The notes under the pieces were generated by a model. That model worked only from the letters and a program-made list of their open reading frames with translations, was not told the origin of the DNA and did not search any database. A stretch of DNA of 64,000 nt from a virus. The stretch lies in IMG/VR virus record IMGVR_UViG_3300017744_000003, positions 9,000 through 72,999 of that record; one strand, 5' to 3'. The position numbers and the translations under genes are program-made. Shown piece after piece: positions 3,434-62,299 of the stretch; within the stretch, counting starts at the first letter, position 1; each line of letters starts with the position of its first letter.

Positions 3434-3485
3434 GACATACATACTATAAAATAGTTTTCAACAACTTATAAAACAAAGGTTAGTC

Positions 3486-4313
3486 ATGATTACTGACAAC
3501 AATAAAGTTATTCTCCCTATCGGTGTCGAAGTTGATGGGGTACGTTATCGAGAAGTTACTTTGGACGAGATGACAGGTATCGACGAAGAAAACTTGTCTT
3601 CTCGCAAAGTGCGTAACAATGGGGCAAAGGCAATCACGCTTCTCCTAAGACGGTGTATACAGTCTATTACAGGTGTTATAGAAACAAAGCGTGACCCTTT
3701 GTCCCTAATAGATGATCGTATTGTTCGCAATATGTTTGTAGCAGACCGAGACTTCTTGGTCTTATGTATTAGAGCACTTAGTGGGAACCCAGAGGTGTTA
3801 TTAACACCTGAATGTCCTGCATGTGGTTCTAGTTGTGAAAGAATGATAGATGTTCGTGAGCTTGATGTTTATGAATGGGAAGATGACGTTCCTGTTGAGT
3901 TAAAGATTGAGTTACCCCGTGGCTTCTATAGCAAGACCACAAGTAAATATCACAAGGATGTAGTTTGGCAGTTTCCTAAAGGCTTGGGACAAGAGCGTAT
4001 TGCGTCTATGCCTCAAAATGAGGCGGGGACAAATCTTATCGCTTTAGGTCTTAAAGAAGTAGAAGGTCTTGAGACTTTACCTATGCCGGATGACGTTCGT
4101 AAGTTAAGCGTCCGAGATCGAAATGCTTTTGCTCAAGCTATCTTAGAGAACGCAGTTGGCGTAGATAATAAGGTAGACATTGACTGTCCTAATTGTGGCA
4201 ACGAATTTGAGGTAGAGGTCAACACCGTGGGTTTTTCCAATTTGGGTCAACAACAGACCCAAAAGGAATCAAAGCCTGGGATGAGTGGGCGCAAACTTCG
4301 GAAAAGGCGTTAA
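3486..4313 (+). CDS. Tail assembly chaperone (G form) with two CxxC motifs
   Basis: Lies between tube and tape measure. EMTGIDEE, DRDFLVLCIR, CPAC and CPNC. Confidence 0.8.
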   Translation: MITDNNKVILPIGVEVDGVRYREVTLDEMTGIDEENLSSRKVRNNGAKAITLLLRRCIQSITGVIETKRDPLSLIDDRIVRNMFVADRDFLVLCIRALSGNPEVLLTPECPACGSSCERMIDVRELDVYEWEDDVPVELKIELPRGFYSKTTSKYHKDVVWQFPKGLGQERIASMPQNEAGTNLIALGLKEVEGLETLPMPDDVRKLSVRDRNAFAQAILENAVGVDNKVDIDCPNCGNEFEVEVNTVGFSNLGQQQTQKESKPGMSGRKLRKRR

Positions 4314-4456
4314 TAAGAACAGTAGTTGCAGTAGCAGAGCGATGGCGTTGGAACAGATATGATATACTTAGCTTACCTTCTCGACAGAGGGCAATATACT
4401 TAGAGTTATACGAAGAAATTACAGACAAAGAGCGTGAGGCTTCTCGTAGGAGGTAG
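3486..4456 (+). CDS. Tail assembly chaperone GT form made by -1 programmed frameshift at G GGT TTT (4229-4235)
   Basis: XXXYYYZ slippery heptamer in the correct phase. The -1 frame is open 4235-4456 (73 aa, FQFGSTT...WRWNRYDILSLPSRQRAIYLELYEE...RRR*), has no ATG of its own, and ends 2 nt before the tape measure ATG. Confidence 0.85.
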
Positions 4457-4458
4457 GT

Positions 4459-7400
4459 ATGGCTGATACACAATTAAGTCAGGTGATCAAGCTCCAGATC
4501 ACGGGTACTCAGCAGATTGTTAGTTCTATCCAAGGGGTAGAGAAGTCTTTTGATAAGTACGCTAAAGCGCTCCGACGAACAACAAAGAGTCAAAAGAAAA
4601 ATAAAAACTCGATGCGTAAGTTAAGTGACCAGGGTATCGCTAATATGCAAGCGGGTCTTGTTCAGTTATCTACATATCTCTTGAATATGAATGTTAAGAT
4701 TAACAACGTGTTTGAGAATATGACGAAGCGATTCACTGACGCTGAAGACGCAATGACTCAACTTAGAATTACGATGGGTTTAACTAACCTTGAGGCTAGA
4801 ACTGCTACAGAAAAAGAAGGACTTGAAGGTTTAGCAACAAGTTACGATAAGTTTGAAGGCGTAATAGATAGAGTAGCTGCTACTACTGAGTATAGTAAGA
4901 AGCAAGTAGCTAACGCTTTTACTTCTCTTATCCAAAGTGGTCGTTCTGCTGAAGAAGCAATGAGTATGCTCAGACCTGTATTGCAGTTGACTACTGCATC
5001 TGCGGGGCAACTTGGTTTAGCAGAAGCTGTTGATATTGCGACTTTAACAATAGGTACTTTAGGTGGCAAAGTAGAAGATGTTAGAGGCAACTTAAATATG
5101 CTTCTGAGGACTACTCAAAAGACAAAGATTGGTTTTAAAGACCTTCAACATACACTAGGATCACTCAGAGCAGGATTTAGTAAGTTTGCTAAACCTGCTA
5201 AAGAAAGTGGGGAGACGAGAGAGTCACAGTTAATGGCTTTAGCCTCTATTGTTCGTGAAACGGGTTTAGGTCACGCTGAAGCGGGGCAAAAGGTAGACCA
5301 ATTCTCTAAGTCTTTGTCCGGTCTTGGTTCTGCTTTAATGAAGAATGAACTAAGAACATTTTTGGGCAAAGATGGTAAGGGTAGGTTCTCTCAAAAGAGG
5401 TCCGCTTTACTATTAATGTTTGGTATCGACCCTAACGCAGACCTTAGAAAACCCATGCAAGCTCTCTTCAGAAGGAACTCTATCACCAAAGACGAAGCCT
5501 TAGACTTAATGTTACAGTCAAAGTTAGGTAAGGTGAACGACGGTAAAGTTCAGAGGCTTGACTTAGGTCAAACCTTAGATACTCTTACTGGGGAATATGC
5601 TAAGTTAGTAGCCGGTAAAGGTAAAAAGAAGGCTGATGATTTTATCAAGGCTGCAATGGGTCAAGACGCGGCTGTATTCGTATTAAATGCAATTGCACAG
5701 AAGTCTACAAAAGTATTGAAAAATGTAAACGAGCAAGGAGCAAAAGTTTTCTATACAGCGGCTGAAGCGGGGCAAGCCTTTAGATCCGTAAGTAAAGAGT
5801 TAGCAAAAGACCTTAGGGATTTAGAGAACGCAGAAGCGGAAGCTCAGAAGACTCTTTCTTACAAGATGAAAGTTCTTACGGGAGCGCAAGACGCTTTATC
5901 TAATTCAATCTTTAAGCATGACGCTTATGCCCAGGCGGGTGTTGAGACCTATAAAGAGATGATAGTAGCTTCAACTACTTTAATGAATAACAACGAAGGG
6001 TTAGCAACAAGTCTTGGTTTTATGGGTCGAATGATGCAGTTACTGACTGGGTTTGGTACTAATATGGGCTTTATGCTTGTCGCTTCTGCGACGTTTAGTA
6101 TGGGTCTTAAACACGCTCAAGACTTAACAGGTAGGTCAACGAGGAGTCTTGGTGGAACAATGAGAGCGTTCCATACAGCGTTCTTAAGTCCTACTTTATT
6201 GGTTGTAAGACAACTTGCCGGCGGTTTCTTCTTATTAGGTTTATTAGTTGTTTCTACAATGCGTTACATCTCTGGAGCGCAAGTAGGTATAGGTAAGGGT
6301 TTCTCTGACGTTCTAAATACGGTGACACAGTCAGCAAAGGCTTTAGGTGGGTTTATTAATTTGGCCTTCCATAAAGACTATCAAAATAAGTCTGTAAGAA
6401 AATTGCGTGAGGACTTTGTTAGTCTCACAGAAAAGTCACAAGGTCTTAGGGTTGCATTGGAGAATGCCACACCAGGTACTGATAAATATAAAGAATTAGA
6501 AACAAACCTTAAAACTGTTAATAGTCAACTAGGGCCGCTACAAAAGGCACTAGGTGATTCGGGAGAAAAAGGTTTACGAGCCCTTGGGGATTCTTCGATT
6601 GCTAAGTCACTTGCTGGACTTGTAGATGTATTAAGATCACTAGGTAACGCTTTGTACATTGTGTTTGAATCAGCTATTAAGCCGGTTATGGGTGGAATTA
6701 AGACTATATTTTTTGTTCTAGGCCAGGCTTTCAAAGGTATATTCTTTGTCTTCAAGAAGTTATCCGACTTCTTAGGTTATACAACAACAGAGACTGGGTT
6801 TTTAACCGAGTCTTTGAAGGTTTTAGGCTACTTTATTGGTACTGTGTTTACAGGCTTTATGATGTTCAAGTCACTTAAAATACTAGTTGGAGTATTAGGT
6901 GGCTTAAAGAATATGTTTGTAAGTGCAGGAACAGGGATTGGTAAGTGGAATAACAATGTTAAGCGCTCAACAAGTTATCTAAATACTCATAAAACTGCAC
7001 TACACCAAAAGGCGACTGCCTTAGATAAACTGAATCTTAAGTATACAGCAGCTACGGGGCAAACTAAAAAATTAGGTGATCAAGTTGCTATATTAAATGA
7101 GAGAACAACCGCCTCAAAAGGTAAACTTGCGACTATGGCAGGTAGCTTAGGTAAGGCGGCTGGTAAAGCGGCCGCCTTCGGAGGTAGTTTAGCCTCTATT
7201 GGTATGCTTGTTTCTATGGCAGGCCCTGGTTATGAGTCTATGGGTAACGGTATCATGCAAGTAGGTATGGCCTTAAGCCTACTCATCGGATTATGGCCTG
7301 CTATCTCAGGATTTTTTGTTTTATTGAAGAGTTTTTCTATTACAACAGGTTTAACAATGCTTGCGGCTTTTTGGCCTGTTTATCTTGCGCTTGCGGCAAT

Positions 7401-12798: not shown

Positions 12799-12823
12799 TA
12801 CTTTTCAACAACTATGAGGACTT

Positions 12824-49903: not shown

Positions 49904-51331
49904 ATGAGATGGTTAAGAAGAAGTGAAGCAGCCGAAGCTCTAGGTATCAAAAGACGCGCAGTACGAACTCTAGCAGACAAGGGCGAAATACCCACTAGGT
50001 ATGAAGGCAGGATAAAACTGTACTGCATATCAGACGATATGCTGAATAAGCCTGTTAAAGAAGTAGATGAGTTTTTTGAACAAAGTTCGGATAAGTATAT
50101 CTTTGATCCTGTTAAAGACACTTACTTATTTTTTGGTCTACCTAATCAACCTCCCATAGTAAAAGTACCCAGAACTAGAATAGACTCTTTGATCAGTGAT
50201 TATTCAAACGAAGCGGGCGGCGCAACTGTCAATCAGTTATCTGTTCGTTATGAGCTTTCAAGAGCTACGATAAAAGCCATACTTAATTGGTTAGGTAAAA
50301 CCCATGACTCAGCGCCTTTCTCTGATGAAACACTAGAGCATAGTAATGAAGAAGACTTAGCCTCATCTGTGTTAAGAGCTAAAGAGCAGCGAGTCTTAGT
50401 TAAAGCTCAGAAAAAAAGACTTAATCGCCATGAAAACTATCTTAATCAAGTAGACCTTGTTAAACACTATATTAATGAAGTGTATTCTATCGTTGGGGAT
50501 ATAGACTTAAAGGGTTCTAAGCCTAAGAAGCGCAAACTTGCTAAAGAAGCCAAGGAATATGTAGCCGTGTTAGGTTTGACGGACTTGCACATAGGTAAAC
50601 GAGGAGTAGACGGTTACAACTCAGAAGTAGCTTCTAAAAGAGCGATAAACACCGTCACCAAAGCAACTGCTTTAGCCCAAGGTTCATGGGGTATACCTGA
50701 TTATTGGGTCATCACTTGTGGTTCCGATATGCTTCATGTGGATAACTACCAGGGTACTACTCAAAAGGGTACGCCGATGGACACTGACGTAGACCCTGTA
50801 GAAATGATGGCGATCGCTTATAGAACTATGGAGACTATCGTCTTACTACTTCAAGAGACTGCTCCTGTGAAAGTGGTGGCAATGACGGGTAACCATGACC
50901 GTATGCTGAGTGCTCTACTAGGTATGATGATAGACGCAAGATTCAACGACGACCCAAGAATAGAAGTTGTTGATGGTAGCCGAGGTAGCGCTTACATTAG
51001 GTATGGCGCTAGTTTGTTAGGCTTTAATCATGGTGACTCTATAAAGCCAGATAAGTTACCTAGTATAATGTCTGCGGAAAGACCGGAAGATTGGGGTGCT
51101 TGTAAAGGTAACTGGGATTGGTTTTGTGGTCATCTTCACTCTTTGATCTTAAAAGTGAGTGAACATAACGGTTGTAGAGTATGGACTATGCCTGCGCTCA
51201 GTGGTACGGATAGATGGCACAAGTTAAACGGCTATGCTTTTAATAGGAAACAACTAGCAATGTTTAGGGTAGAGCCTAACAATGGTGTAGTAGCAGTAGA
51301 ACTAATCGAGGGTAAAGATAAAGATGGATAA
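49904..51331 (+). CDS. HTH-fused calcineurin-like metallophosphoesterase
   Basis: N-terminal excisionase-like HTH (EAAEALGI..RAVR.LAD.GEIP); DLHIG, GSDMLH, GNHD, HGD, GHLH. Confidence 0.85.
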   Translation: MRWLRRSEAAEALGIKRRAVRTLADKGEIPTRYEGRIKLYCISDDMLNKPVKEVDEFFEQSSDKYIFDPVKDTYLFFGLPNQPPIVKVPRTRIDSLISDYSNEAGGATVNQLSVRYELSRATIKAILNWLGKTHDSAPFSDETLEHSNEEDLASSVLRAKEQRVLVKAQKKRLNRHENYLNQVDLVKHYINEVYSIVGDIDLKGSKPKKRKLAKEAKEYVAVLGLTDLHIGKRGVDGYNSEVASKRAINTVTKATALAQGSWGIPDYWVITCGSDMLHVDNYQGTTQKGTPMDTDVDPVEMMAIAYRTMETIVLLLQETAPVKVVAMTGNHDRMLSALLGMMIDARFNDDPRIEVVDGSRGSAYIRYGASLLGFNHGDSIKPDKLPSIMSAERPEDWGACKGNWDWFCGHLHSLILKVSEHNGCRVWTMPALSGTDRWHKLNGYAFNRKQLAMFRVEPNNGVVAVELIEGKDKDG

Positions 51332-51971
51332 AACAGTTTTAGACAAAGGCTTTGTACGCTTAGTAGACGTTATGGGTTCTGATATGAGTGTTGTTAACTC
51401 TGCTCGTATTAGCTTCGCCAAAGAAGTGACGGATATAGGTGATCGAGATGAGAAGCTAATAAAGTACTTATGGGAACATCGTCATACGAGCCCCTTTAGG
51501 CATGCTACCTTGCAGTTCCATGTTAAAGCGCCTCTATTTGTTCTTAGACAGTGGATGAAGCACCAAATAGGTTGTTCTTGGAACGAAGTGTCCGGCAGGT
51601 ATGTAAAGTTTGATAATGCTGACTTTTATATGCCTAGCGTATGGCGAGAACAGCATGAATCAAATAAACAAGGTTCAAAGGGTTCTATTGAGAGTCAAGA
51701 GAGTGCAAATCTTTTTTACCAGGACTCTATGCGGCTAGCTGTTACTCGTTATAAAAACTTACTTGACCTTGGGGTGTGTAAAGAGCAAGCGCGTATGGTT
51801 TTGCCTCTTTCCATGTATACTGAGTGTTATTGGACAGCTAGTCTTCAAGCGATCATGCACTTCTTAGAATTAAGAGAAGACTCCCATTCACAATGGGAAA
51901 TCCAACAATACGCAGTAGCAATAAGAGAACTTGCTTTAGAACATTTCCCTATTAGTTTAAGTCTACACTAG
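51324..51971 (+). CDS. thyX: Flavin-dependent thymidylate synthase
   Basis: VVNSARISF, HTSPF, RQWMKH..SWNEVSGRY, KEQARMVLP, SQWEI. Confidence 0.95.
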   Translation: MDKTVLDKGFVRLVDVMGSDMSVVNSARISFAKEVTDIGDRDEKLIKYLWEHRHTSPFRHATLQFHVKAPLFVLRQWMKHQIGCSWNEVSGRYVKFDNADFYMPSVWREQHESNKQGSKGSIESQESANLFYQDSMRLAVTRYKNLLDLGVCKEQARMVLPLSMYTECYWTASLQAIMHFLELREDSHSQWEIQQYAVAIRELALEHFPISLSLH

Positions 51972-52019
51972 TCTTATTTCTGCTAAAATCTCTCGTACCA
52001 AATAACGAGAGGGGATTAT

Positions 52020-52883
52020 ATGTTTGATCTAGCAAAACTGACAGTTGAGCCTAGAGATATTGACCTATTTTATAAGCAAGGATTCTTAGAAAATGAGGAG
52101 GCGCAGAAGTTATCAAACTACTTCTTTTGCCTTAAGACAGAGAGTGGACAGCAAAGCGCATTAGGTTATTACAATGATGAGAAAGATTGCTTAGAGTTGT
52201 TGAAAACAAAGGACTTAGTGTATCAAGGATTCAAGCCAAAAGATGGTGCTCAAGCGTGTATGTTTTGGGCATTAAAGCACTTAGATCTTGTGGTTGCTCT
52301 TGGTGCTGCGGGTACCGGCAAAACGACCGTTGCTTTAGCTTATGCCCTTAACGAAGTCTTCCGTAATGGGAAGGATCTTGTTTTGTGTAAACCTACTACT
52401 TTTGTTGGACAAAAGAGTAATGCGATAGCAGCTATACCTGGGGACCACAGAGAAAAGTTAGAAGGCTACATGGATTCTTACTTTACTGCGATGAAGAAGA
52501 TCATCGGTGAGACGTTTGAACACCACCTCTTTCAGCTAGAAGAAGAGGGGCGTATCCAGTTTAAGCCCTTTGAGTTACTAAGAGGTCAACACTTTGAGAA
52601 TGCTATTGTTATTATTGACGAAGCGCAAAATACAACGCCTCATGAGTTGTTAACCGCTATTAGTCGTGTAGGCAATCACTGTACTCTTATCATTATGGGA
52701 GATCCCGACCAAGTAGACTCAGGGCTTGCCCATGATGAGACCGGTCTTTGGGAACTGATAAACAGTCATGCTTTCTTAGATTGTCCTTTTGCAGTAGGTG
52801 TTAAGTTAACCGCTCAGTATCGAGGCCCAATGGCGCAACTAGCTCAAGAGGTTATCGAGGAACTTAGAGACCGAGAAAAATAA
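52020..52883 (+). CDS. phoH: PhoH-family ATPase
   Basis: GAAGTGKT, PGD..EKL, LRGQHF, IDEAQN, MGDPDQVD. Confidence 0.92.
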   Translation: MFDLAKLTVEPRDIDLFYKQGFLENEEAQKLSNYFFCLKTESGQQSALGYYNDEKDCLELLKTKDLVYQGFKPKDGAQACMFWALKHLDLVVALGAAGTGKTTVALAYALNEVFRNGKDLVLCKPTTFVGQKSNAIAAIPGDHREKLEGYMDSYFTAMKKIIGETFEHHLFQLEEEGRIQFKPFELLRGQHFENAIVIIDEAQNTTPHELLTAISRVGNHCTLIIMGDPDQVDSGLAHDETGLWELINSHAFLDCPFAVGVKLTAQYRGPMAQLAQEVIEELRDREK

Positions 52884-52919
52884 TTAAAATAGTTGTTGAA
52901 AACTTGTTTAAGGTAGGTT

Positions 52920-53333
52920 ATGTATGGTTGGTCAATAAGGACGCGCCATAAGACTTTTGAGTCAGAAACGAGAAGATACATGAAATACTTACCTTACCAA
53001 AAACAAGAAATAGAGACTATTGCACTTCGTCTTTCTCATGTTGATCACAAGATTTCGGCAACCCGCTGTAATCACCATGATAAAGAGATGCTTCTTCGTA
53101 AACTTTGGGACACAGACACCGCACTAAGCGGGATTGACATTGAAGAAGTCATTGAAAACCACATGAACTTGATTGATATATACGCGATTGACTACGTCGT
53201 TGAATACGGAGCGGGTGAAGAAACTTTTGAATGGGTGGAGACTTTCGCTAAAATGAGTCACTGTTTAATCTTCGGCGTAAAGCGTGACCTCGGTCTTTGG
53301 CGCTGTGTTTCTAAAGGATATAATGAGGTTTAA
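52920..53333 (+). CDS. Hypothetical protein (start may be 52980)
   Basis: ORF in the + strand gene run. Confidence 0.6.
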   Translation: MYGWSIRTRHKTFESETRRYMKYLPYQKQEIETIALRLSHVDHKISATRCNHHDKEMLLRKLWDTDTALSGIDIEEVIENHMNLIDIYAIDYVVEYGAGEETFEWVETFAKMSHCLIFGVKRDLGLWRCVSKGYNEV

Positions 53334-53334
53334 A

Positions 53335-53721
53335 ATGAAAAACCCATACCCAATGGTTGTTCCCTCTGGGTTCTCAGTAGAGAAGAAGAGAGAGTATTAC
53401 CTAAATATTCTTTCTGAGTTTACTGAAGAGCAAAGAAAAGAGTGGGACTCTATTGTTCTTGAGAACAAGGTTACTGATACTTCTTCTAACTTTTGGTGTT
53501 CTTTAATACTCTACTATAAAATTACGATGAGTGTATTAAAAGATATTCAATCACTTCACATCGAGTTTGATGGCGAGTTAGAAGACGTTAGAGGTCATGT
53601 CAATTGGTCACCTGATACTAACTGGAGAGAGCGATGGATTAAAGCCAACGGTATTCTCATGCAAGACATTGATCGTTTTAACCTACACAGAGATACATAC
53701 TCAGATAAGGACTGGTATTGA
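53335..53721 (+). CDS. Hypothetical protein
   Basis: GAGG SD before the ATG at 53335. Confidence 0.6.
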   Translation: MKNPYPMVVPSGFSVEKKREYYLNILSEFTEEQRKEWDSIVLENKVTDTSSNFWCSLILYYKITMSVLKDIQSLHIEFDGELEDVRGHVNWSPDTNWRERWIKANGILMQDIDRFNLHRDTYSDKDWY

Positions 53722-53724
53722 TAC

Positions 53725-53910
53725 ATGGTATATGAACAAGCACTAAAGTTCATAAACAAAGAAGTATTTGGCATAACTAAAGATCAGCTTGTTATAAGAG
53801 GTAGGCTAACTGAGGTAAATAAAGACGGTTACGCCATCATAGTTGTTCATAACACAATCCCTGTTAGGGAATATAAGACGCATATAAAATATGTGTTCCC
53901 GCAGAAATGA
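53725..53910 (+). CDS. Small hypothetical protein (possible Sm/SH3-like beta fold)
   Basis: 61 aa; ATGA overlap with the methyltransferase gene. Confidence 0.5.
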   Translation: MVYEQALKFINKEVFGITKDQLVIRGRLTEVNKDGYAIIVVHNTIPVREYKTHIKYVFPQK

Positions 53911-55238
53911 CTAGAAAGAAAATTAATGTGGATACTACCAAAAACCTTACCCATATTTCCCTCTGTGCAGGATACGGGGGGATTGATCTCGGACTTTCAA
54001 GAGCTATCGGAGCAGTTAGAACAGTCTGTTTTGTGGAGATCGAAGCCTTCGTCATCGAAAACTTGGTCGCGAAGATTGAAGCGGGACTGCTCGACACCTC
54101 GCCTATTTTCACAGATCTTAAAGCCTTCCCTTGGGAACTCTATAATGGAAAAGTGGATATCCTCAGTGGAGGGTTCCCTTGCCAACCATTTAGTGCCGCA
54201 GGAAGACGTAAAGGAAGCGAAGATCCTCGACACTTGTGGCCTTACATCACAGACGGAATCAAGCGCCTTGGAAGACCTTCCATTGTTTTCTTTGAAAACG
54301 TCGAGGGAATCATCTCCTCAAAACTCAAGGGAGACGATTGGGCAGATCCGGAAGGAACGTCTGTTCTGCACCATGTCCTTAAAGAGTTGGAACGCTTGGG
54401 TTACAAAGCAACGGCGGGAGTATTCAGTGCGCGTGAAGTTGGCGCGCCACACCAAAGAAAGCGAGTTTTTATTCTTGGTGTCAGAGATGACTTCGGAGAG
54501 TCGGGATTGGAATTTATATCGTCAATGCTCAGAGGTACAGGAACAGATGCGAAATTGGCCTACCCCGCATCAAGAGGCGCAGAACAGTACGCATGGGAGC
54601 CAAGGAGAGTTACAGTGGGCAACGCCGGCACAAGCAGATCACAAACTGTATCACATGAGCATCGAAGCTATGACAGTGAGATTAAATACAAAGAGACAGT
54701 TGGGTCTGCCAGGTCATGTGCATCAAACAGAACAGAAGCGTTGGAGGCGATCAGTTTCGATAGATCGGAAAGGCCCTTGTCCGAAAGCACCGCAAGAACA
54801 AAAGGAAGTAAACTGGGCAACGCCGATGGCGGGGACAAAGGATCACATGGGGTCGAGTTTAGAATATTACCAACGCAGGTCACAAATAGGGAAGCAAGTG
54901 GACTTGAATGGACAGGTGATGTTGGAGAAGGATTGGACCACACCAATCAGCAGGGATTGTTACGAGATTGTGATGAACCACCAAATACCAATCCGAAAAG
55001 ACGGGAAAACGAGGTTAGATACAATGCCCAGGCAGGTACACCACGAAGAGGGTTACAAGGGGAAACTGAACCCACGTTGGGTGGAGACGCTCATGGGGCT
55101 ACCTGTGGGTTGGACTATGCCCAGTTGTCAGATTCCTGTGATAATAGAACAGATGAGTTACGACTGCTTGGAAATGGAGTCGTTCCCGCCACAGCAGAAA
55201 GAGCGTTTAGAACCCTGTGGAGAGCCTTATGCCAATAA
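53907..55238 (+). CDS. C5-cytosine DNA methyltransferase, alpha chain (motifs I-VIII and X, lacking IX)
   Basis: SLCAGYGG (I), GGFPCQPFS (IV), FENV (VI), PHQRKRVF (VIII), LLGNGVVP (X). Confidence 0.92.
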   Translation: MTRKKINVDTTKNLTHISLCAGYGGIDLGLSRAIGAVRTVCFVEIEAFVIENLVAKIEAGLLDTSPIFTDLKAFPWELYNGKVDILSGGFPCQPFSAAGRRKGSEDPRHLWPYITDGIKRLGRPSIVFFENVEGIISSKLKGDDWADPEGTSVLHHVLKELERLGYKATAGVFSAREVGAPHQRKRVFILGVRDDFGESGLEFISSMLRGTGTDAKLAYPASRGAEQYAWEPRRVTVGNAGTSRSQTVSHEHRSYDSEIKYKETVGSARSCASNRTEALEAISFDRSERPLSESTARTKGSKLGNADGGDKGSHGVEFRILPTQVTNREASGLEWTGDVGEGLDHTNQQGLLRDCDEPPNTNPKRRENEVRYNAQAGTPRRGLQGETEPTLGGDAHGATCGLDYAQLSDSCDNRTDELRLLGNGVVPATAERAFRTLWRALCQ

Positions 55239-55536
55239 TCAAGTCAGAGACATAGCGCAGCCAACAGAAGAACCTTGGCCTACGCCTAACGCTAGAGACT
55301 TTAAGGACTCAATAAGTACTGTACCTCCATCTGTTACCGTCACAAGAGGTTATTCTTTAGGGCAGGCCGTCGCTAAAGAAAATATTAAAGATTGGCCTAC
55401 ACCTTCTGCTTCACAAAGGGGTGACACACTAGAGACGTATGAACGAAGATCTAGGAAACGAGAGGAACAAGGGTTAATGCCGTTTGCCCCCGTGTTACAA
55501 GTAGCCGTTGAAGCGTCAGAGAAGAGTAAGAAATGA
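53926..55536 (+). CDS. Overlapping +1-frame methyltransferase partner (motif IX-like plus six W-x-T-P modules); true start uncertain
   Basis: 536 open codons containing LNPRWVETLMGLPVGWT and WPTP/WATP/WTTP repeats. Its stop is ATGA-coupled to the next gene. Confidence 0.8.
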   Translation: MWILPKTLPIFPSVQDTGGLISDFQELSEQLEQSVLWRSKPSSSKTWSRRLKRDCSTPRLFSQILKPSLGNSIMEKWISSVEGSLANHLVPQEDVKEAKILDTCGLTSQTESSALEDLPLFSLKTSRESSPQNSRETIGQIRKERLFCTMSLKSWNAWVTKQRREYSVRVKLARHTKESEFLFLVSEMTSESRDWNLYRQCSEVQEQMRNWPTPHQEAQNSTHGSQGELQWATPAQADHKLYHMSIEAMTVRLNTKRQLGLPGHVHQTEQKRWRRSVSIDRKGPCPKAPQEQKEVNWATPMAGTKDHMGSSLEYYQRRSQIGKQVDLNGQVMLEKDWTTPISRDCYEIVMNHQIPIRKDGKTRLDTMPRQVHHEEGYKGKLNPRWVETLMGLPVGWTMPSCQIPVIIEQMSYDCLEMESFPPQQKERLEPCGEPYANNQVRDIAQPTEEPWPTPNARDFKDSISTVPPSVTVTRGYSLGQAVAKENIKDWPTPSASQRGDTLETYERRSRKREEQGLMPFAPVLQVAVEASEKSKK

Positions 55537-55805
55537 AAGACGAATCTGTGCTTCTGCCTAGAGAGTATAGCAAGTGTATACTTGAGGTTAAGAATGGTGT
55601 TGTACATTATAACCAAGAGTGTGTTATCGAAGTGTTAACCAACGATTTCCTTAAAAGTATATTGGCAGGTGACTTGACTTGTAATGCAGATACCATAGAA
55701 GAATCTGCCTATCTTCATGCTATAGAATGGTTTGACTATAATATAGCATGTGCGTATATGGGCAAATATACACCTGTTTATGTAGTACAAGAGGAGGAAG
55801 AGTGA
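55533..55805 (+). CDS. Hypothetical phage protein
   Basis: C-terminal AIEWFDYNIACAYMGKYTP motif recalled from small phage proteins. Confidence 0.65.
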   Translation: MKDESVLLPREYSKCILEVKNGVVHYNQECVIEVLTNDFLKSILAGDLTCNADTIEESAYLHAIEWFDYNIACAYMGKYTPVYVVQEEEE

Positions 55806-56047
55806 TGGATAGATTTTCTGTTCTTACATGGTTTATCTTTGTTTTATTTATTTTTGGTTTAGTCAACTTTTACTATTCAGAAGTTGTTGACGTTTACCTG
55901 TGTACAAACAAAGAAGGGCTCACTACTTATGTGGGTAAGAAGATTCCCGATAAGCGATTAAATGTTGGTTCTTGTAACCTGGTTAGAATGACTAACTTAG
56001 AAGTCCATAACCTTCGTTCGTCTTACAAAAGGATTTACTACAGATGA
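55805..56047 (+). CDS. Small membrane-anchored protein
   Basis: GAGGAGG SD; N-terminal TM VLTWFIFVLFIFGLV. Confidence 0.6.
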   Translation: MDRFSVLTWFIFVLFIFGLVNFYYSEVVDVYLCTNKEGLTTYVGKKIPDKRLNVGSCNLVRMTNLEVHNLRSSYKRIYYR

Positions 56048-56124
56048 TCACAATACAGAACGTCTTAGTGATTTACGTCTTTTGTGCATTCATGATCATC
56101 ATGCTACTTGAGTTGATAGACTAG
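56044..56124 (+). CDS. 26-aa hydrophobic peptide MITIQNVLVIYVFCAFMIIMLLELID
   Basis: ATGA-coupled to the upstream gene and fills the gap to the convergent gene. Below the ORF-track length cutoff. Confidence 0.45.
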   Translation: MITIQNVLVIYVFCAFMIIMLLELID

Positions 56125-56447
56125 TCTATATCTACTTCAACCTCCGGTTGTAAAACTATCTCTCCTAGATACTCATAGTCTTGGTCTTCACCTTTATCTT
56201 CATAAACAAAGACACGTTCTGCACCAAGATTCTCTGCGACTTCTCCCATAACAGATAGACATCTATCTTTGTCTTTAGAGATCATGCAGATCGCCTTGGG
56301 TGGGTCTTGGTAAAACAACCACATATTCGATAGCAGTATCAAAGGGAACACTAGTACTGCGGTGACGAGTGATGTGTACCATAAGCAAGCGCAAGAGTAA
56401 GCTAAGAATAATACTTTTCCATAGTCTTTTGGGATACTTATTTCCAT
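56121..56447 (-). CDS. Membrane protein (two N-terminal hydrophobic segments)
   Basis: 108 aa with a GAGG SD. Confidence 0.65.
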   Translation of the reverse strand: MEISIPKDYGKVLFLAYSCACLWYTSLVTAVLVFPLILLSNMWLFYQDPPKAICMISKDKDRCLSVMGEVAENLGAERVFVYEDKGEDQDYEYLGEIVLQPEVEVDID

Positions 56448-56455
56448 GTGGCCTC

Positions 56456-57040
56456 TTAGTTGTTGAATACTTTTAATAGTGTTTTAACTGCGTAACTATA
56501 CCAGTTATCCATAGAATCTTCGTTTAATGGAGGAGGTAGCTCAAAGACCTTTACACCTTTAGCTTTCATTTCATCTAACCACGTAATCATTGACTTGCTT
56601 GTATCTCTTAGTCCGTCTTCTTCTATGTAAGCACACACCTCTTCTTTGTCTACAAGTCTCTTGTGTGCCTCTTGCGGGAAACAGTGACAGTAAATTATAC
56701 AGTCAGGTAGCTTGTGTAACTCTGAAAGGGAAGTGGTCATATCCTCAAACAGAGCTAGTTCATCTTTAGACGTTTGTGAATCATCTATAAGCGCTCTAGC
56801 AAAGGCATAAGAAGACCACACACTATGTTCGTAAAAGAATACTTTATCTTCTTGATCGTCTTGTTCTTTCCAAACCCTCATGTTTTCGGTGAGTGCATAC
56901 GTCCAACCTTTAAGGCCGTTAAAAGGTGGTGGCGGAATACATATTTTAATACGGTCAAAGGGGACTTCGCCTCTTTCTGCAAGTTGCTCTACAAGGTAGT
57001 TCAACGGAGAGCCCCAAATTCCTTCTAAAACAATTCTCAT
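56456..57040 (-). CDS. Deoxynucleoside-kinase-fold protein with a degenerate P-loop
   Basis: IVLEGIWGSP (no GKS/T), YEHSVWSS..FA, LPDCIIY......AHKRL. Confidence 0.7.
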   Translation of the reverse strand: MRIVLEGIWGSPLNYLVEQLAERGEVPFDRIKICIPPPPFNGLKGWTYALTENMRVWKEQDDQEDKVFFYEHSVWSSYAFARALIDDSQTSKDELALFEDMTTSLSELHKLPDCIIYCHCFPQEAHKRLVDKEEVCAYIEEDGLRDTSKSMITWLDEMKAKGVKVFELPPPLNEDSMDNWYSYAVKTLLKVFNN

Positions 57041-57106
57041 GTTAAGTCCTTACGCATAGGTGTCTGTTTGCTGTCTCTTTAGTATAATATATATTGGAGG
57101 TGACAT

Positions 57107-57352
57107 ATGAATGACCTAAGCCACTTAAAAGATAAAAAGTATGTAACAGATACTCTAAGAGACTTCACGGAAGATATGGAAGACTTAGATGAAACTATTT
57201 GTGCATTATGTGGATTATCTCCGGATATGTGCCCTTGTTATGAACACCCAAAACACTCTTGTGAAATAGAGGGGTGTCATTGTTCTATATTATGCTCTTG
57301 TTGTCGCGTTAGTATATGTAGCTGTGGTTACTTAGATGTTCAAAAAAGTTGA
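57107..57352 (+). CDS. Cys-rich small protein (12 Cys in about 42 residues)
   Basis: GGAGGTG SD, TATAAT at 57083, acidic N-terminus and CxC/CC clusters. Confidence 0.7.
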   Translation: MNDLSHLKDKKYVTDTLRDFTEDMEDLDETICALCGLSPDMCPCYEHPKHSCEIEGCHCSILCSCCRVSICSCGYLDVQKS

Positions 57353-57358
57353 GTCAGT

Positions 57359-58186
57359 ATGGAGTTTAATGAACGAACCTTAGCTATTGTTTTGCTTGAC
57401 CTCATAGGTAGCACTGCTTTTGTTCAAAAGGTAGGTGCTAAAAGGGCAGCAGAATGGTTACAGTATCACGACAGGCTGACTAGAAGTCTACTGTATAAGT
57501 TTAATGGTAGAGAGATAGACCGTTCTGACGGTTTTATGCTTTCTTTTGACCGACTAATAGACGCTGTTAACTTTTCCGTTCATTATCAAATATCAATACC
57601 AAGGAAGACCAAGTTAAACACTCGTATCGGGGTGCATTGGGCAAACGTAGTTGAAGTTATACAAGATGAACTCTATGTGGGCGTGGGAGCTAAACGCATA
57701 GAGTTAGAAGGTATTGCTAAGAACATTACAGCACGTACCATGAGTATTTGTTTACCTGGTCAAGTTCTTTTAACAAAAGAAGCAGTGAAAGTAGCCCAGG
57801 GTAGAGCAAATACTTATACACCACAAGGTACTCGTTACGCATGTGTAGGTCTCTACCGGTTTAAAGGCGTAAAAGATCTTCAAGAGATATATGCTGTAGG
57901 GACAACCTTAAGTGTTTTACAGCCTCCACCTAGTTCCGATAAAGTAAAAAGAGTCGGAGGTCCTAAGAAGATAAAGTCTAGGGCAAGGGACCGTAAACTT
58001 ATAGAATGGCTTTGGTGGCTATCAGTAAGGCTATGCTTTATAATAATCTTTTGGCTGTTAGCAGAGTCTTGGTCTGCTATTAGCAACCCCCAGGTGCGTA
58101 GAATGTGGGGCCATGATTGGTTATTTTGGTGGACTGACTATGTTAATCTTTTATTTGAACCCTTTAGAAAAGTGCTGAACTTATGA
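57359..58186 (+). CDS. Class III nucleotidyl cyclase with a C-terminal TM segment
   Basis: IVLLDLIGSTAF, GREIDRSDGFM, RIGVHW, EG..KNITAR, PGQVLLT, GLYRFKGV; hydrophobic WLWWLSVRLCFIIIFWLL. Confidence 0.9.
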   Translation: MEFNERTLAIVLLDLIGSTAFVQKVGAKRAAEWLQYHDRLTRSLLYKFNGREIDRSDGFMLSFDRLIDAVNFSVHYQISIPRKTKLNTRIGVHWANVVEVIQDELYVGVGAKRIELEGIAKNITARTMSICLPGQVLLTKEAVKVAQGRANTYTPQGTRYACVGLYRFKGVKDLQEIYAVGTTLSVLQPPPSSDKVKRVGGPKKIKSRARDRKLIEWLWWLSVRLCFIIIFWLLAESWSAISNPQVRRMWGHDWLFWWTDYVNLLFEPFRKVLNL

Positions 58187-58641
58187 TAGATCCCGATAAC
58201 GAGATCAAAGCTAAAAGAGGATGGTACTTTTCTATCTTCTTTTTATTCCTTATCGTATGCTTAGTTGTGTTTCTGAGTTATGTAGAGATCGTCAAAGAAA
58301 ACCGAGACGTACTCGTAGGTATCTTAGGTGTTCTAACTGGCAGCATAAGCTCAATGATGGCTATCGCTTCTGGTCGTGACCCTTCAGAAGTAGAGAAACT
58401 TCAAGATAAACTATCATCTGCTAACGCAGATAGAGAAGCGCTAATAGCGAGACTCAGAGACGCGCAAATACAGCTACAGATTAAGAACGAACAGATAAGT
58501 TCTTTACAGTCTGCCATGATAGATAAACTATCTTTATTTGCCGGAGAGTCCATAGCTTCACCTAAAAAGACAGACGACGTTGAACTAAACCCAGACGTAG
58601 AAGCATGGTTGCCACAAGTGGATAGAGATCAAAAACTGTAA
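58183..58641 (+). CDS. 2-TM membrane protein with a C-terminal coiled coil
   Basis: Two hydrophobic helices separated by KENRD, then heptads. ATGA overlap with the cyclase gene. Confidence 0.8.
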   Translation: MIDPDNEIKAKRGWYFSIFFLFLIVCLVVFLSYVEIVKENRDVLVGILGVLTGSISSMMAIASGRDPSEVEKLQDKLSSANADREALIARLRDAQIQLQIKNEQISSLQSAMIDKLSLFAGESIASPKKTDDVELNPDVEAWLPQVDRDQKL

Positions 58642-58662
58642 AGTTGTTGAAAACTATTCTCA

Positions 58663-58704
58663 CGCTTAGAGGTTAGACCAACAACCAAGTCTAACCTCTA
58701 AGCG
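58663..58704. terminator. Perfect 16-bp hairpin between convergent genes
   Basis: CGCTTAGAGGTTAGAC-N10-GTCTAACCTCTAAGCG. Confidence 0.7.
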
Positions 58705-58802
58705 AAAGAACATTCCTCTGAGCCCCTAAAGCAACCCTGCGAAAAAAGTTTTTTTAATCAGAGGAGTCACCACTCTATTGTAAATAAAAGTATAGTCAAG
58801 GC

Positions 58803-60146
58803 TTAAAAGTCTAAGTCTTTAAACAAAGGTAACACTTCAAGATCCACTTCTTCGTTCTTGGTTTTTTCTATATCTGCTATGGCTGACCAATGGTCTATAC
58901 GAACTTTAGCGATCTCTGCGTATTCCTCTTCACGCTCAATGCCGAACCCTTCTACGTCTTCAAGCGCACAGGCGCACAGAGTAGTACCTGACCCTAGAAA
59001 CGGTTCAAGGACTGTACCCCCTGGGGGCGTGACCATACGAACTAGATATCTCATAAGGTCTATAGGTTTAACAGTGGGGTGTACATTAGCTCTTTTAGAA
59101 TCCGTCTTAGATTCAAGCCCTGCTTCACGCTCTTTCTTGTTCGCTTTAGTCGTATAGAAGAAACGACTTGCGCCCCCTGTATCTCCATAGCCTTCACTTC
59201 CCTTGGCTTCCCATTTACCAATTGTGGGTTTGCCGGCAACTCCCCATGCTCTCGACTTACTGCCTGCGGTTCCACTCTTTTGAACACCGCTCTGTTTATC
59301 TAGTTCTTGGGCTGACTCTGCATCGAGCATTATATTAGCAGGCCATCTGCCCTTCTTCCAATCATCTTTTACAGATCCAATTCTTGCAGACTTATTATGA
59401 AAACCCCGTTGTGCTTCAGTGACCTTGTTTGCTTGAGGGGTCACACCTGTATTTTCACCTTTTTGAAGAGGTATACGAGTTGCATCTATATTAATACCAC
59501 CAACACCCCATTTAAGAACATTATCTGCCACTGTTCCTTCGGGTGGTTTCCTTATTAAAATGATGGGTTCATAAGCGGGTTTTAATGCAGTACCATAACC
59601 TACCCATTGTTTTGATCTATCATCTCTTGATATGTATTCACCGACGGGGTTTGATTTGAGCTTGTTCTTCTCTTCTGTATCACTCGCTTGATAACGACTA
59701 GCTGTTGGAATAGCTTTACCTCTATTTGAGTGACCTATCTTCTTATCGATGCCTAGAGCTACGTTGTGACTTTTTGGAAAACCACTTCCATATATCCACA
59801 TGATAGTATCTCGTATATCGAAACCGGCTAACCGCAGCGATATACTCATGAGGTCTTGAGTACGTGTCCCTGCAAAGACCACACCATAAGCACCAGGCTT
59901 CATGACTCGATAGACTTCTCTCCACAGGTCGGGCTGTGGTACAAAAGAATCCCATTCCTTATTCATGAAGCCTTTTTTGTTCTTAGGTGTCCAAGTATCT
60001 CCTGTTGACCATGCTGTTAAACATTCTGCCATCATCTGGGGTGTCACTTGACTAAGACCATAGGGTGGATCAGTGACAAGTGCGTCAAAAGAGTTGTCCT
60101 CTACTGCCTTAAGGACTTCAAGACTATCTCCATTTAGTATCTTCAT
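58803..60146 (-). CDS. N4-cytosine/N6-adenine DNA methyltransferase (beta class)
   Basis: VTDPPY, WIYGSGFPK, ALKPAYEPI, GRWPAN, HPTVKPI.LM, EPFLGSGTT. Confidence 0.95.
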   Translation of the reverse strand: MKILNGDSLEVLKAVEDNSFDALVTDPPYGLSQVTPQMMAECLTAWSTGDTWTPKNKKGFMNKEWDSFVPQPDLWREVYRVMKPGAYGVVFAGTRTQDLMSISLRLAGFDIRDTIMWIYGSGFPKSHNVALGIDKKIGHSNRGKAIPTASRYQASDTEEKNKLKSNPVGEYISRDDRSKQWVGYGTALKPAYEPIILIRKPPEGTVADNVLKWGVGGINIDATRIPLQKGENTGVTPQANKVTEAQRGFHNKSARIGSVKDDWKKGRWPANIMLDAESAQELDKQSGVQKSGTAGSKSRAWGVAGKPTIGKWEAKGSEGYGDTGGASRFFYTTKANKKEREAGLESKTDSKRANVHPTVKPIDLMRYLVRMVTPPGGTVLEPFLGSGTTLCACALEDVEGFGIEREEEYAEIAKVRIDHWSAIADIEKTKNEEVDLEVLPLFKDLDF

Positions 60147-60174
60147 CTATGTCTCCAAAGTTGTTGAAAAGTAT

Positions 60175-60831
60175 TTATAGTATGCGTCGGGCGAGAGGAC
60201 ACATAGCTTCCACTTTATCCATAAGTTTCTCAGCCCAATATTCCCTATCAAGCTCTAATACTTTAGGAGACTGTACACAGAGTACCTTTACTCCCTTAGA
60301 CTCTAGCAAACTTAACCATGTTTGGTACAGGTCGTCAATAATCCAATAGTGATCTTTGGGCAGAGGTGAATGACAGGGCAGACATTCAAAGTAAACAACC
60401 AAATCCGGCAAGTCTAGTTGAGACACCGCATACACCCAACGCATCTTAAACTCATTATACTCATAAGGCGTTAGGCCAAACTCAGAACCAAACACCCACT
60501 GGGCAAAAACAAACAAAGACCATACTGAGCGCTCATAGTATATATAACCCACATCCTCTTCCCAATCACCTCCACCTTCCCAATCTACTAACCTCTCAGA
60601 TAACTCCGTTAGCCAATCGTCAAGACGTAAACTGTCTCCGTCAAGCGCACGGCTAAAACCACTACCACTTGTCCACACTGTATCACCCCGCGCATAACGA
60701 CCTTCAACAGACCACATAAACGCACCAAGACCACTCCCAGGTATACCCTCTAAGGATATTCGGGCGAAAGGGCGCATAAGACCAAAACTCATAAATAAAA
60801 ACCCCCTACCATATATAAACTCATACCCCAT
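60175..60831 (-). CDS. Second deoxynucleoside-kinase-fold protein with a degenerate P-loop (start uncertain)
   Basis: ISLEGIPGSGLG, YYERSVWS.FVFA, LPDLVVY, GVKV; motifs shared with 56456..57040. Confidence 0.65.
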   Translation of the reverse strand: MGYEFIYGRGFLFMSFGLMRPFARISLEGIPGSGLGAFMWSVEGRYARGDTVWTSGSGFSRALDGDSLRLDDWLTELSERLVDWEGGGDWEEDVGYIYYERSVWSLFVFAQWVFGSEFGLTPYEYNEFKMRWVYAVSQLDLPDLVVYFECLPCHSPLPKDHYWIIDDLYQTWLSLLESKGVKVLCVQSPKVLELDREYWAEKLMDKVEAMCPLARRIL

Positions 60832-61507
60832 ACTCCTATATACACTAACAATACACTCCCCTAGTACATACTCATATACATAACATAAACTAAACTATAG
60901 CCCTCATATACACAAATAATAACCAATCACACCCCCATAAACACCCCATAAACCCCCCATACATCAATACACTATACTCCCTAATCTCTAACATCCATAA
61001 CACCATTATCCTATACCTTATATAAATATACCACCGGTCGGTGTCTAGCGCGCGCGACGCTCGACGCACCTATAGTCGTTGCTCCCGACGACGAGCACCT
61101 CCAAAAAAAGACTACTAAAAGTAGCATGGCCTGTCCGGCGATGAGCCATAGGTCACTTGGTTCTCAGCGGGTAGACCTCGCTAGCGTGGGAGCTAGCGAC
61201 GAGCGCTCATCATTTCTAAAAAAAGCCGAAATCCTAACCTTCAGTAATATACCCATACCGAATGTTAGACTTTGAAAAGTATTTTTGAACCTACCCTGGG
61301 TAGAAAATTGGGTCGATTTTGGGGTGATATGGCTCTTCACCTCTGAAAACAGGGCAAAATGGTATATCAACATTGAAATTGCCAAAAAATCAAACCACGA
61401 CTATAGGGTCATCGAGTACGGTTTGCCCCGTGGGGTTTATACAAAAATAAAAAGCGCCAACATAGTGTGGTCTTTTGGGTCCTATTTTGGACTTACAGAC
61501 CTACCAG

Positions 61508-61732
61508 TTAAGCGATTTGGAAAGATGAGCGACTGTGTGGCTCATCACCCTCTACAATGGTTCTGATGATAATGATGTGAGCGTCTAGCTCAGGAACAAA
61601 AGTGACGAGTGCTTCTCCATCGTCTGTCTCAAACGTCCTAACGATCTGCCAAGCGCCAGGTAAGCGCGGCTTAGTCATGTCGGTGATGAGGTCTTGTATA
61701 GTCTGTGTCTCTTCAGTGTTTAGTTCATACAT
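61508..61732 (-). CDS. Hypothetical protein
   Basis: Last gene of the leftward operon. Confidence 0.55.
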   Translation of the reverse strand: MYELNTEETQTIQDLITDMTKPRLPGAWQIVRTFETDDGEALVTFVPELDAHIIIIRTIVEGDEPHSRSSFQIA

Positions 61733-61735
61733 GTG

Positions 61736-62248
61736 TTAGACCTCTTTTGTGTAACCTGCCAAGATCTCAACGGCACCTACTAGGGTATCAGCCCAAGTCC
61801 ACTCGCAGTCTCTGTATTCTACCGTGTATACTGTATCGATTACGCCACCCTCATCGTTTATATCTAGGGCTCCGGTGAACGTCGTAGGTATACATTCTCC
61901 TATCTCTATTAAGTTCTCTTGTAGTATGAGCGCTTCTTGCCATTTGATTGTAGGAACAAATGCGTCTATCTGGTGTGTGTAGCGCCGTATGTGCTGATAC
62001 ACACCCTGTGCAAGCGCTTGGTCCGGTGAGTCTCCTGCACCAACAATATCATTGTCTTTGTGGCATGCATAAGCGATGAGCGATCCTTGGAACAGTAGCT
62101 CCTGTTCAGCTGCGTCTTCGACCGACAGTTCCTCTTCAAAGATGAAGGTAAACCCTTCTGGGGTAAAGCCATCGTCTCTAGTTGCGGTATAGATGAAGAG
62201 TTGCTTTTGGTCTTTTGACGTTGTGTAGTTGTATGAGTGTAGTGTCAT
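61736..62248 (-). CDS. Hypothetical acidic protein
   Basis: 170 aa in the leftward operon. Confidence 0.65.
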   Translation of the reverse strand: MTLHSYNYTTSKDQKQLFIYTATRDDGFTPEGFTFIFEEELSVEDAAEQELLFQGSLIAYACHKDNDIVGAGDSPDQALAQGVYQHIRRYTHQIDAFVPTIKWQEALILQENLIEIGECIPTTFTGALDINDEGGVIDTVYTVEYRDCEWTWADTLVGAVEILAGYTKEV

Positions 62249-62299
62249 TGTGTATCTCTTTCTGTGAGAGTTGTTGAAAAGTATTTAGAGTGTGTATGT

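Follow-up and report, generated by a model that had tools for sequence, protein, structure and literature searches.

A 64,000-nt stretch of viral DNA (hereafter the window; bases 9000–72,999 of the 72,999-bp virus record IMGVR_UViG_3300017744_000003, referred to as G000 and rated 75% complete) carries a 12-nt word, AGTTGTTGAAAA, that recurs letter for letter between genes and inside them, and the question raised by this locus is what such a set of identical sites is for. A first-pass annotation, made from the letters alone, had noticed the repeat and proposed that it is bound by a protein, possibly one that organises the phage DNA, rather than acting as a promoter. We have followed this proposal by counting the word, by gathering related phages and by comparing candidate binding proteins. 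The sites have been found to be strictly conserved, nearly palindromic and evenly spaced; the word is probably not a promoter, and we favour, as possible rather than probable, the reading that a DNA-binding protein of the phage recognises the repeat as its site; the likeliest such protein is the orphan ParB/Noc/KorB-like one encoded at 42741–43646.

The repeat word, its conservation and its anatomy

In the window, 14 exact copies of AGTTGTTGAAAA (10 on the plus and 4 on the minus strand) have been counted, compared with none in 100 dinucleotide-preserving shuffles, which bears out the earlier statement that 14 copies lie far above chance. When one mismatch is allowed in the 13-mer, there are 16 matches against 0.41 expected, the two near copies being one at 56458, as annotated, and one at 39667, which had been overlooked. 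Over the whole record there are 16 exact copies, and the set is all-or-none: just two near copies accompany these 16 12-mers, and versions with one or two mismatches are hardly present in any genome checked. The annotated positions have proved right throughout, with four minus-strand copies quoted 2–3 nt early since a longer word had been counted. The copies in the window are listed here together with the TAG hexamers that are considered below.

3455–3466, minus strand: exact copy 19 nt before the start of 3486–4313 (baseplate-like), pointing away; TAGTAT 8 nt downstream
12802–12813, minus strand: exact copy 10 nt upstream of the start at 12824 and directed away from it; TAGTGT 9 nt downstream
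18243–18254, minus strand: exact copy within gene 18077–18643, antisense, the coding strand reading L-F-N-N-F; TAGTGT 9 nt downstream
24167–24178, plus strand: exact copy 9 nt past the stop codon of 23939–24157; TAGTGC 8 nt downstream
30665–30676, plus strand: exact copy in the final 28 nt of 30381–30692; TAGTGT 8 nt downstream
35962–35973, plus strand: exact copy 2 nt past the primase stop codon, without a TAG element
39667–39679, plus strand: near copy ACTTGTTGAAAAC within the helicase gene, exact at the matching place in the relative G001
42716–42727, minus strand: exact copy 13 nt before the start codon of the ParB-like gene, pointing away
46936–46947, plus strand: exact copy within the TGT/DpdA-like gene 46545–47927, reading K-L-L-K-S
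49367–49378, plus strand: exact copy within the ribonucleotide reductase gene, reading E-L-L-K-S, kept in the relatives G001, G004 and G005
52195–52206, plus strand: exact copy within the PhoH-like gene, reading E-L-L-K-T
52891–52902, plus strand: exact copy beginning 7 nt past the stop codon of the PhoH-like gene; 11 nt downstream, TAGGTT runs directly into the ATG at 52920
56458–56470, plus strand: near copy AGTTGTTGAATAC between two minus-strand genes
58642–58653, plus strand: exact copy directly past the stop codon of 58183–58641, between convergent genes and followed by a hairpin
60159–60170, plus strand: exact copy 12 nt upstream of the start codon of methyltransferase gene 58803–60146 (minus strand) and directed away from it
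62269–62280, plus strand: exact copy 20 nt upstream of the start codon of gene 61736–62248 (minus strand) and directed away from it

The placements described in the annotation have been largely recovered: the five copies said to precede start codons end 10–20 nt upstream and point away (3455, 12802, 42716, 60159, 62269), the three said to follow stop codons begin 0–7 nt past them (35962, 52891, 58642), and the copies at 24167 and 30665 do have 19 nt in common. Among the six copies that had been assigned to coding sequences, four lie there as stated and that at 30665 does so at the very end of its gene, but that at 24167 lies past the stop codon, where only a doubtful open reading frame (ORF) overlaps it.

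Related phages have been gathered via the motif, via proteins and via a re-screen of the fetched loci; the motif scans of the viral collection yielded single chance matches among those listed, and G001 alone stood out. Several of the related records are fragments.

G001, 81 kb: syntenic, ∼70% identical (nucleotide identity 65–83%); 20 exact copies, matched to those of G000 in place and relative orientation
G002, complete, 84,945 bp: no exact AGTTGTTGAAAA; 8 copies of AGTTTTTGAAAA and 3 of AGTTATTGAAAA, all followed by CT except one AGTTATTGAAAA with CA
G003, 27.7-kb fragment, 55.7% G+C: proteins 50–70% identical; 6 exact copies of AGTTGTTGAAAA
G004 and G005: TTGTTGAAAAG(T/A)CA, 16 and 12 copies
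G006: AGTTGTTGACAAGTC, 9 copies
G008: TTGTTGAAAAGT-like, 5 copies
G007, more distant relative: TTGACAAACA
G009, more distant relative, complete: a few copies of TTATTGACAAGT

A further relative, 90–95% identical across window positions 42501–62500, has been seen in the public run X4, with the segments 54505–54558 and 61732–62265 replaced.

The conservation of the word is considerably stricter than that of its surroundings. In nine orthologous G000–G001 pairs with clean flanks (7 of the 16 G000 sites fell below the flank threshold and were left out), the core has been found identical at 108 of 108 positions versus 70% in the flanks. The exact or a close word is over-represented in G001–G006 and G008, and the six relatives beyond G001 span 37–56% G+C. 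The invariance of the core relative to its flanks, together with this over-representation, points to selection on the site itself. A literature search with the word returned nothing on phages or bacteria among the matches listed, the clade not having been otherwise searched.

The word annotated as a 13-bp site has stood, but its length has not, as the alignment of the G000 copies extends the motif to A-n-AGTTGTTGAAAA-S-T and a second element follows in a subclade. The site is a 14-bp near-palindrome of 6-2-6 design, in which the arms AGTTKT and AMAAST surround a central TG that is fixed in all lineages. The main G002 site reaches 6 of 6 complementary arm pairs, as do 0.07% of the 14-mers of that genome; the G006 site and the C13 form of G000 reach 5 of 6, a level of at least 5 being attained by 0.5–0.6% of 14-mers, and the common G000 form reaches 4 of 6. 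Lineages differ at two positions, 5 (G, T or A) and 10 (A or C), which are dyad partners; G002 turned symmetric via a change in one arm and G006 via the other.

The second element, TAG(T/G)(G/T)T (TAGKKT), starts 6–11 nt past the core in 35 of 46 sites of G000–G002, and 7–9 nt past it in 33, one G001 site at a contig edge having been dropped from the count. Its background is 0.10 (P = 1.4e-25), and none has been found on the mirror side. It is conserved between orthologous coding copies and is absent in G003–G006, which retain the core.

The sites are dispersed about every 4–5 kb along the whole phage chromosome, more evenly than random placement would give. The coefficient of variation of the gaps, for which random placement has a mean of ∼0.9, is 0.50 in G000 (P = 0.003), 0.47 in G001 (P = 0.0004), 0.47 in G002 (P = 0.012), 0.41 in G005 (P = 0.001) and 0.66 in G004 (P = 0.07), values which amount to about three independent lineages, as the sites of G000 and G001 are mostly shared by descent; the short fragments G003 and G006 give no even-spacing signal. 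By crude gene calls (longest ORFs, taken greedily), 47 of 90 sites in seven genomes lie well inside ORFs, 14 at ORF edges and 29 in intergenic DNA; 34 have the sense orientation and 51 the antisense one, and 5 stand where genes converge, the figures for G000 alone being 8, 7 and 1. The orientations form no significant blocks along the genome in any of the seven (runs test, P = 0.055–0.88). The TGT/DpdA-like gene holds exactly one site in each of G000–G003, at differing codons and in both orientations.

The orphan ParB-like protein as candidate binder

The protein on which the preferred reading centres is encoded directly behind one of the sites.

42741–43646, plus strand: ParB/Noc/KorB-like orphan protein with ParB_N and HTH_ParB domains

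Its Pfam matches are ParB_N (1.2e-7) and HTH_ParB (1.3e-13), and its matches in the PDB are Noc, Spo0J, ParB and KorB (E 8.5e-17 to 4e-9). It is present in 9 of 9 records where it could be searched for; all seven orthologues compared carry the GxxRxxA nucleotide-binding motif, and the ParA-binding motif [LFI]G[KR]G[LFI] is absent from the same seven. No ParA-like protein (PF13614) has been found in G000–G002 and G009, of which G002 and G009 are complete, with 14 of 14 control genomes positive, and no integrase (PF00589) in the same four records.

Wherever two genomes carry the same word, a binder of the repeat would be expected to have the same residues for reading it. The recognition helix GWSKTLITQRL of the ParB-like protein is identical in G000, G001 and G003, with the G003 protein just 37–38% identical overall, and is nearly unchanged in all other relatives. 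A site lies 8–14 nt before the parB ribosome-binding site and points away from the gene in 13 of the 22 loci with upstream DNA, near-duplicates included; there is none before parB in the G003, G006, G007 and G009 groups and in L314. The ParB-like protein is the best candidate binder: its helix does not change among genomes whose sites are alike, and a site often stands before its gene. Among the others, the MerR-like protein (40408–40980) has a helix-turn-helix (HTH) that is not the same in G003 as in G000, for the DnaD-like initiator (31679–32539) the N-terminal HTH domain cannot be aligned in G003, and in the 478-aa SbcD-like exonuclease (49895–51331) two HTH stretches ahead of the exonuclease-like part both vary, with no homologue seen in the G003 fragment. 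As regards a matS-like site, another candidate of the annotation, the scanned proteins have turned up nothing MatP-like. The neighbouring TGT/DpdA-like gene had suggested DpdB as an identity of the ParB-like protein, which has been rejected: published DpdB is marked by a DGQQR motif and by a C domain that is helical, and the phage protein has GFRR and a ParB HTH instead.

The specificity of the protein may be new. The residues that contact DNA in Caulobacter ParB have been mapped through the Noc alignment, and the four specificity positions are K, R, D and N, which is neither the parS set (RxxG) nor that of the Noc-binding site (NBS), QKKR; these residues make a new site specificity plausible. 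At helix residue 130, Leu is paired with G at site position 5 in 11 of 11 loci with a visible site, and T stands there in each of the three loci that combine Ile130 with a site before parB, a co-variation that is suggestive and uncorrected for shared descent. The annotated idea of a phage-specific parS for the ParB-like protein has therefore been kept in one respect, as this protein is the best binder that can be named, and dropped in another, as no ParA and no ParA-binding motif have been found and the sites are genome-wide, unlike in a classical partition set.

One may postulate the following mechanism. The phage protein would recognise the 14-bp double-stranded site in either orientation to the genes, as a dimer that places one HTH on each arm of the near-palindrome, with which the 6-bp arms around TG are consistent. 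By analogy with KorB of RK2 and Noc of Bacillus, the ParB-like protein would load at each site, possibly as a clamp dependent on cytidine triphosphate (CTP), and spread or slide along the DNA away from it, such that the phage genome, the parB gene included, could be covered, organised or repressed. A fuller picture, reasoned by analogy, is a doubtful one: from its 11–20 evenly spaced sites a lone ParB-family clamp would cover or control the whole chromosome in a clade of lytic marine myoviruses, as a counterpart of KorB or Noc, and in the subclade where a −10-like box accompanies the sites at 7–9 bp, the loaded clamp could switch −35-less promoters on or off in either direction. In comparable ways the T4 sliding clamp acts as a mobile enhancer and KorA locks KorB.

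Several observations weigh against the ParB-like protein as binder. Every G000-type copy keeps G5 with A10 and the central TG, and symmetric variants are lacking among them; such strict asymmetry is odd for a homodimer and would better fit a monomer or a directional function. The one-sided, variably spaced TAGKKT looks like a −10 box and is left unexplained by ParB binding, and two related words in G009 form the −35 of TTGACA-N17-TATGAT promoters beside parB, which speaks for a promoter role. The co-variation of helix and site comprises two or three evolutionary events, the G006 group combines Ile130 with G5 and C10, and when shared proteins were scanned for columns changed in G002 as well as in G006, ParB did not stand out. 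In G007 and G009 a near-identical ParB helix is kept, and the sites have diverged or become much rarer. Finally, the count of orientations rests on the greedy gene calls.

Genes for a sheath, a baseplate, a spike and collagen-like fibres around these sites mark the phage as one whose tail is contractile, and its replication genes encode a DnaD-like initiator, a DnaC-like loader, DnaB helicase, primase, PolA and an SNF2-type helicase. The block for DNA metabolism also holds RecA, a resolvase, the ParB-like protein, a Cas4-like nuclease, SpoVS-like and TGT/DpdA-like proteins, a class II ribonucleotide reductase, an SbcD-like exonuclease, ThyX, PhoH and two methyltransferases. Among cultured phages, none with a DNA match to G000 has been found, PolA being at most ∼34% identical over most of its length, and the public runs with parts of G000 are labelled as seawater metagenomes. 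The SpoVS-family protein (44917–45210, Pfam E 2.6e-22) is phage-encoded and kept in relatives. The 460-aa protein of 46545–47927 has no Pfam match, and its C-terminal part matches the PHROG queuine tRNA-ribosyltransferase (E 1.2e-22); judged by this match it may be a DpdA-like enzyme and a hint of 7-deazaguanine in the phage DNA, with no genes for preQ0 synthesis seen among the proteins scanned. Upstream of it, in the intergenic interval 46377–46544, lies a perfect 16-bp palindrome, AATCTATCGATAGATT (46470–46485), which is found in G000, G001 and G002 and is repeated as three iteron-like copies beside a long AT run at 37262–37428 of G002; it could be a replication origin or an operator. For the adjacent genes at 57359–58641, weak Pfam matches hint at a nucleotide cyclase domain (E 3e-4) in one and at a two-helix membrane domain of the SLATT type (E 3e-3) in the other; neither reaches the curated cut-offs, and the pair could serve signalling or counter-defence.

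Promoter and other rival explanations

The annotated preference for a protein-bound site over a promoter has been supported by the mixed orientation, by the coding location of about half of the copies, by the even spacing and by a separate promoter-like motif, TATATAAGA.

TATATAAGA motif: window positions 31072, 31107, 46497 and 49885; G000 positions 22, 38 and 5072

With its AT-rich lead, TATATAAGA is intergenic in 7 of 7 G000 copies, and its plus-strand copies face the terminase-side operon, the replication block, the exonuclease gene and others, sometimes as back-to-back pairs. By its letters and placement it looks like a −10-only promoter class and is a better promoter candidate than the repeat word. 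The geometry of the repeat has also been compared with known promoter types by eye on the aligned sites, and a MerR-type and a sigma-70 arrangement, looked for in either direction, have been rejected: no −35 lies at 17–20 bp, and no −10 lies 16–18 bp past TTGAAA or TTGACA. A different and very dense signal, AAAAAACGGAA-N5-AAAA, has been observed 9–12 nt before many start codons in L278 and L279 (the distant relatives G009 and G010, 32% G+C), where 10 of 12 and 7 of 9 copies are on the gene strand; it is distinct from the repeat word. Five public runs were available as contigs only, and the three of RNA type cover 2–12 of 30 bins at depth 1–9, too sparse for transcript starts.

A phage-specific promoter class, in which a phage factor on the 14-mer (about −32 to −19) replaces the −35, as with MotA in T4, and TAGKKT is the −10, is nonetheless the kind of explanation that the second element invites, unlikely as we consider it, and it would imply that about half of the copies drive antisense or non-coding transcripts. 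It would account for an oriented two-part unit with 7–9 nt of play, whose TAG element accompanies 35 of 46 sites, always on the same side, and in which T, A and the final T of TAGKKT match key −10 positions; the core includes TTGAAA (TTGACA in G006, G007 and G009), letter-perfect copies are typical of phage-specific promoters, and canonical sigma-70 promoters are not enriched in the window (40 vs 38.4 expected, 26 vs 35.7, 30 vs 36.5 and 13 vs 16.5). The details of placement argue in the opposite direction. In sense copies beside a gene start, the start codon follows the −10-like box by 0–6 nt: by 1 nt at 30665, where TAGTGT stands before the GTG start of 30692–31054, by 0 nt at 52891, and, for one sense copy, by 4 nt in its G001 counterpart and 6 nt in that of G002, so that the start codon would be missing from the transcript of such a promoter. 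The distance from core to TAG falls short of that of a −35/−10 pair by ∼8 bp (∼9–10 bp from TTGAAA to TAGKKT vs the usual 17), 51 of 90 copies are antisense and 47 within ORFs, G003–G006 keep the core without the TAG element, one gene bears its site at different codons and flipped between lineages, and TATATAAGA occupies the promoter role. Neither Sigma70_r2 (controls positive) nor MotCF (for which the controls gave no match either) has been found in the three records G000–G002, and the complete G002 contains no unexplained ORF of polymerase size.

The asymmetry of the word would be explained more directly by a different phage protein, a monomer with two DNA-binding parts that acts as a polar roadblock or regulator like the L5 stoperators or Tus-Ter, in which case the ParB-like protein would have no part in it. 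For this quite unlikely case speak the strict G5/A10 and central TG in every copy of G000, G001 and G003–G005, the second element on one side only, the two HTH stretches of the 478-aa protein, and a density and short-gap placement resembling those described for stoperators; the sites do not follow the stoperator rule of orientation, the orientations are not significantly blocked along the genome, no sign of an integrase or of lysogeny has been found, and the HTHs of the MerR-like, DnaD-like and 478-aa proteins vary among genomes that share the core, the last of them lacking a visible counterpart in the G003 fragment. Fixed single-strand breaks occur in T5-like and some Pseudomonas phages, and the phage might likewise nick or cut its own DNA with an enzyme that binds the 14-mer and acts at TAG, the breaks possibly starting recombination-dependent replication. 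The two-part architecture with flexible spacing, the letter-perfect and evenly spaced copies on both strands, and a neighbourhood rich in recombination genes (RecA, the Cas4-like nuclease, the resolvase and the SbcD-like exonuclease with its HTHs) would fit such breaks, but G003–G006 are without the TAG element, no nickase has been recognised in the phage, and the dyad symmetry of the core is unexpected under nicking, which makes this highly unlikely. Hardly probable at all is that the sites serve a host protein, such as DnaA or IHF, which the phage borrows. The relaxed DnaA box has the consensus TTWTNCACA, from which the reverse strand TTTTCAACA is one letter off, and the persistence of the word across phages of 37–56% G+C is what a conserved host factor would permit; yet the mismatch falls on a critical position, the 14 conserved bp exceed the 9-mer box and come without degenerate copies, and G002, G006 and G007 have variants of their own.

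Among these explanations, the ParB-like protein as binder is retained as the preferred one, and it gives an orphan ParB-like protein a concrete, conserved and countable set of candidate sites across a clade of uncultured marine phages. If it is true, genome-wide loading sites of the KorB/Noc kind would exist in lytic phages as well, and the natural variants of site and protein (G, T and C types) would lend themselves to the study of shifts in specificity. If the link to ParB fails, a strictly conserved and evenly spaced word still marks some genome-wide function. The hypothesis can be addressed with synthetic DNA and recombinant protein, for which a phage culture is unnecessary.

Comparison with known systems

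The middle promoters of T4 that depend on MotA have a box near −30 and a TAnnnT −10 about 12 bp away, without a −35, and the combination of a conserved box with a TAnnnT-type −10-like element is shared by the repeat. MotA promoters face their genes, unlike the sites described here with their mixed orientation, and the second element is missing in four lineages. The stoperators of L5 and other cluster A mycobacteriophages, which the annotation had offered as a model, are described as more than twenty copies of an asymmetric 13-mer site that are bound by a phage protein, with an orientation that tracks the direction of transcription and a loss of function upon reversal. The phage sites resemble them in the many genome-wide copies, in the asymmetric word and in the frequent location in short intergenic gaps, but about half of them are coding and no sign of lysogeny has been found; the stoperator model fails on its rule of orientation, the 90 sites being divided into sense, antisense and convergent ones as given above. 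Among ∼70 phage proteins scanned, no repressor has been recognised.

Dispersed centromeres occur in phage-plasmids such as N15, and a relation to ParB-parS is suggested by the ParB-family HTH protein, by the conservation of the word across genomes of differing G+C, by the outer GTTT...AAAC letters and by the 8-bp distance between the half-site centres. The phage is unlike these systems in that ParA, the ParA-binding motif, an integrase or plasmid features have not been found and the sites are genome-wide and unclustered. The 16-mer TGTTCCACGTGAAACA, which we take to be the canonical chromosomal parS word, occurs once, at 63550–63565 in a non-coding stretch of 480 bp; with as many as 3 mismatches allowed, neither G001 nor G002 contains it. 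In the literature, the string belongs to works on ParB/parS or segregation throughout, among the matches listed. Its reader may be a host ParB, as the phage ParB-like protein is without the parS-typical Arg/Gly pair. With no ParA found, sites spread over the whole genome and the canonical parS word elsewhere, a classical parS set has been rejected. The same end of the window holds two copies of a longer ∼60-bp unit, ∼300 bp apart (63360–63720), and tandem ∼40-bp units of a G-rich hairpin and gagccataaaaaatacca that run into the contig end (63840–64000).

Noc sites number dozens, many of them inside genes. Noc is an orphan ParB paralogue without ParA, as is the phage protein, and is among the best solved matches of the latter. 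The phage protein differs in beginning directly with the ParB N domain, with no N-terminal membrane helix evident, and in its specificity residues (K, R, D, N versus QKKR for NBS and RxxG for parS). Noc nucleates on 16-bp chromosomal sites (PMC8429893). Orphan ParB-like proteins are frequent in mobile elements, phages among them, and a 2025 survey describes such orphan homologues as widespread.

A close parallel in layout is given by plasmid RK2, a replicon of comparable size over which KorB, a ParB-family HTH protein, binds many short palindromic sites that are identical. RK2 carries 12 OB sites. The phage has 11–20 identical sites per 73–85 kb (16, 20 and 11 copies in G000, G001 and G002, all-or-none and evenly spaced) and a ParB-family HTH protein whose own gene is preceded by a site. 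Differences concern the partners, as KorB has the ParA partner IncC and the clamp-locking KorA and TrbA, none of which has been found here; the site, as OB is a perfect palindrome and the G000 site has 4–5 of 6 arm pairs around a fixed asymmetric centre; and the replicon, the phage being a lytic-looking myovirus. The KorB sites lie partly at promoters and partly far off, and KorB, loaded as a CTP-dependent sliding clamp, represses at a distance. Judged by these likenesses, the repeat set would work most like KorB on OB and Noc on NBS, transferred to a lytic-looking phage.

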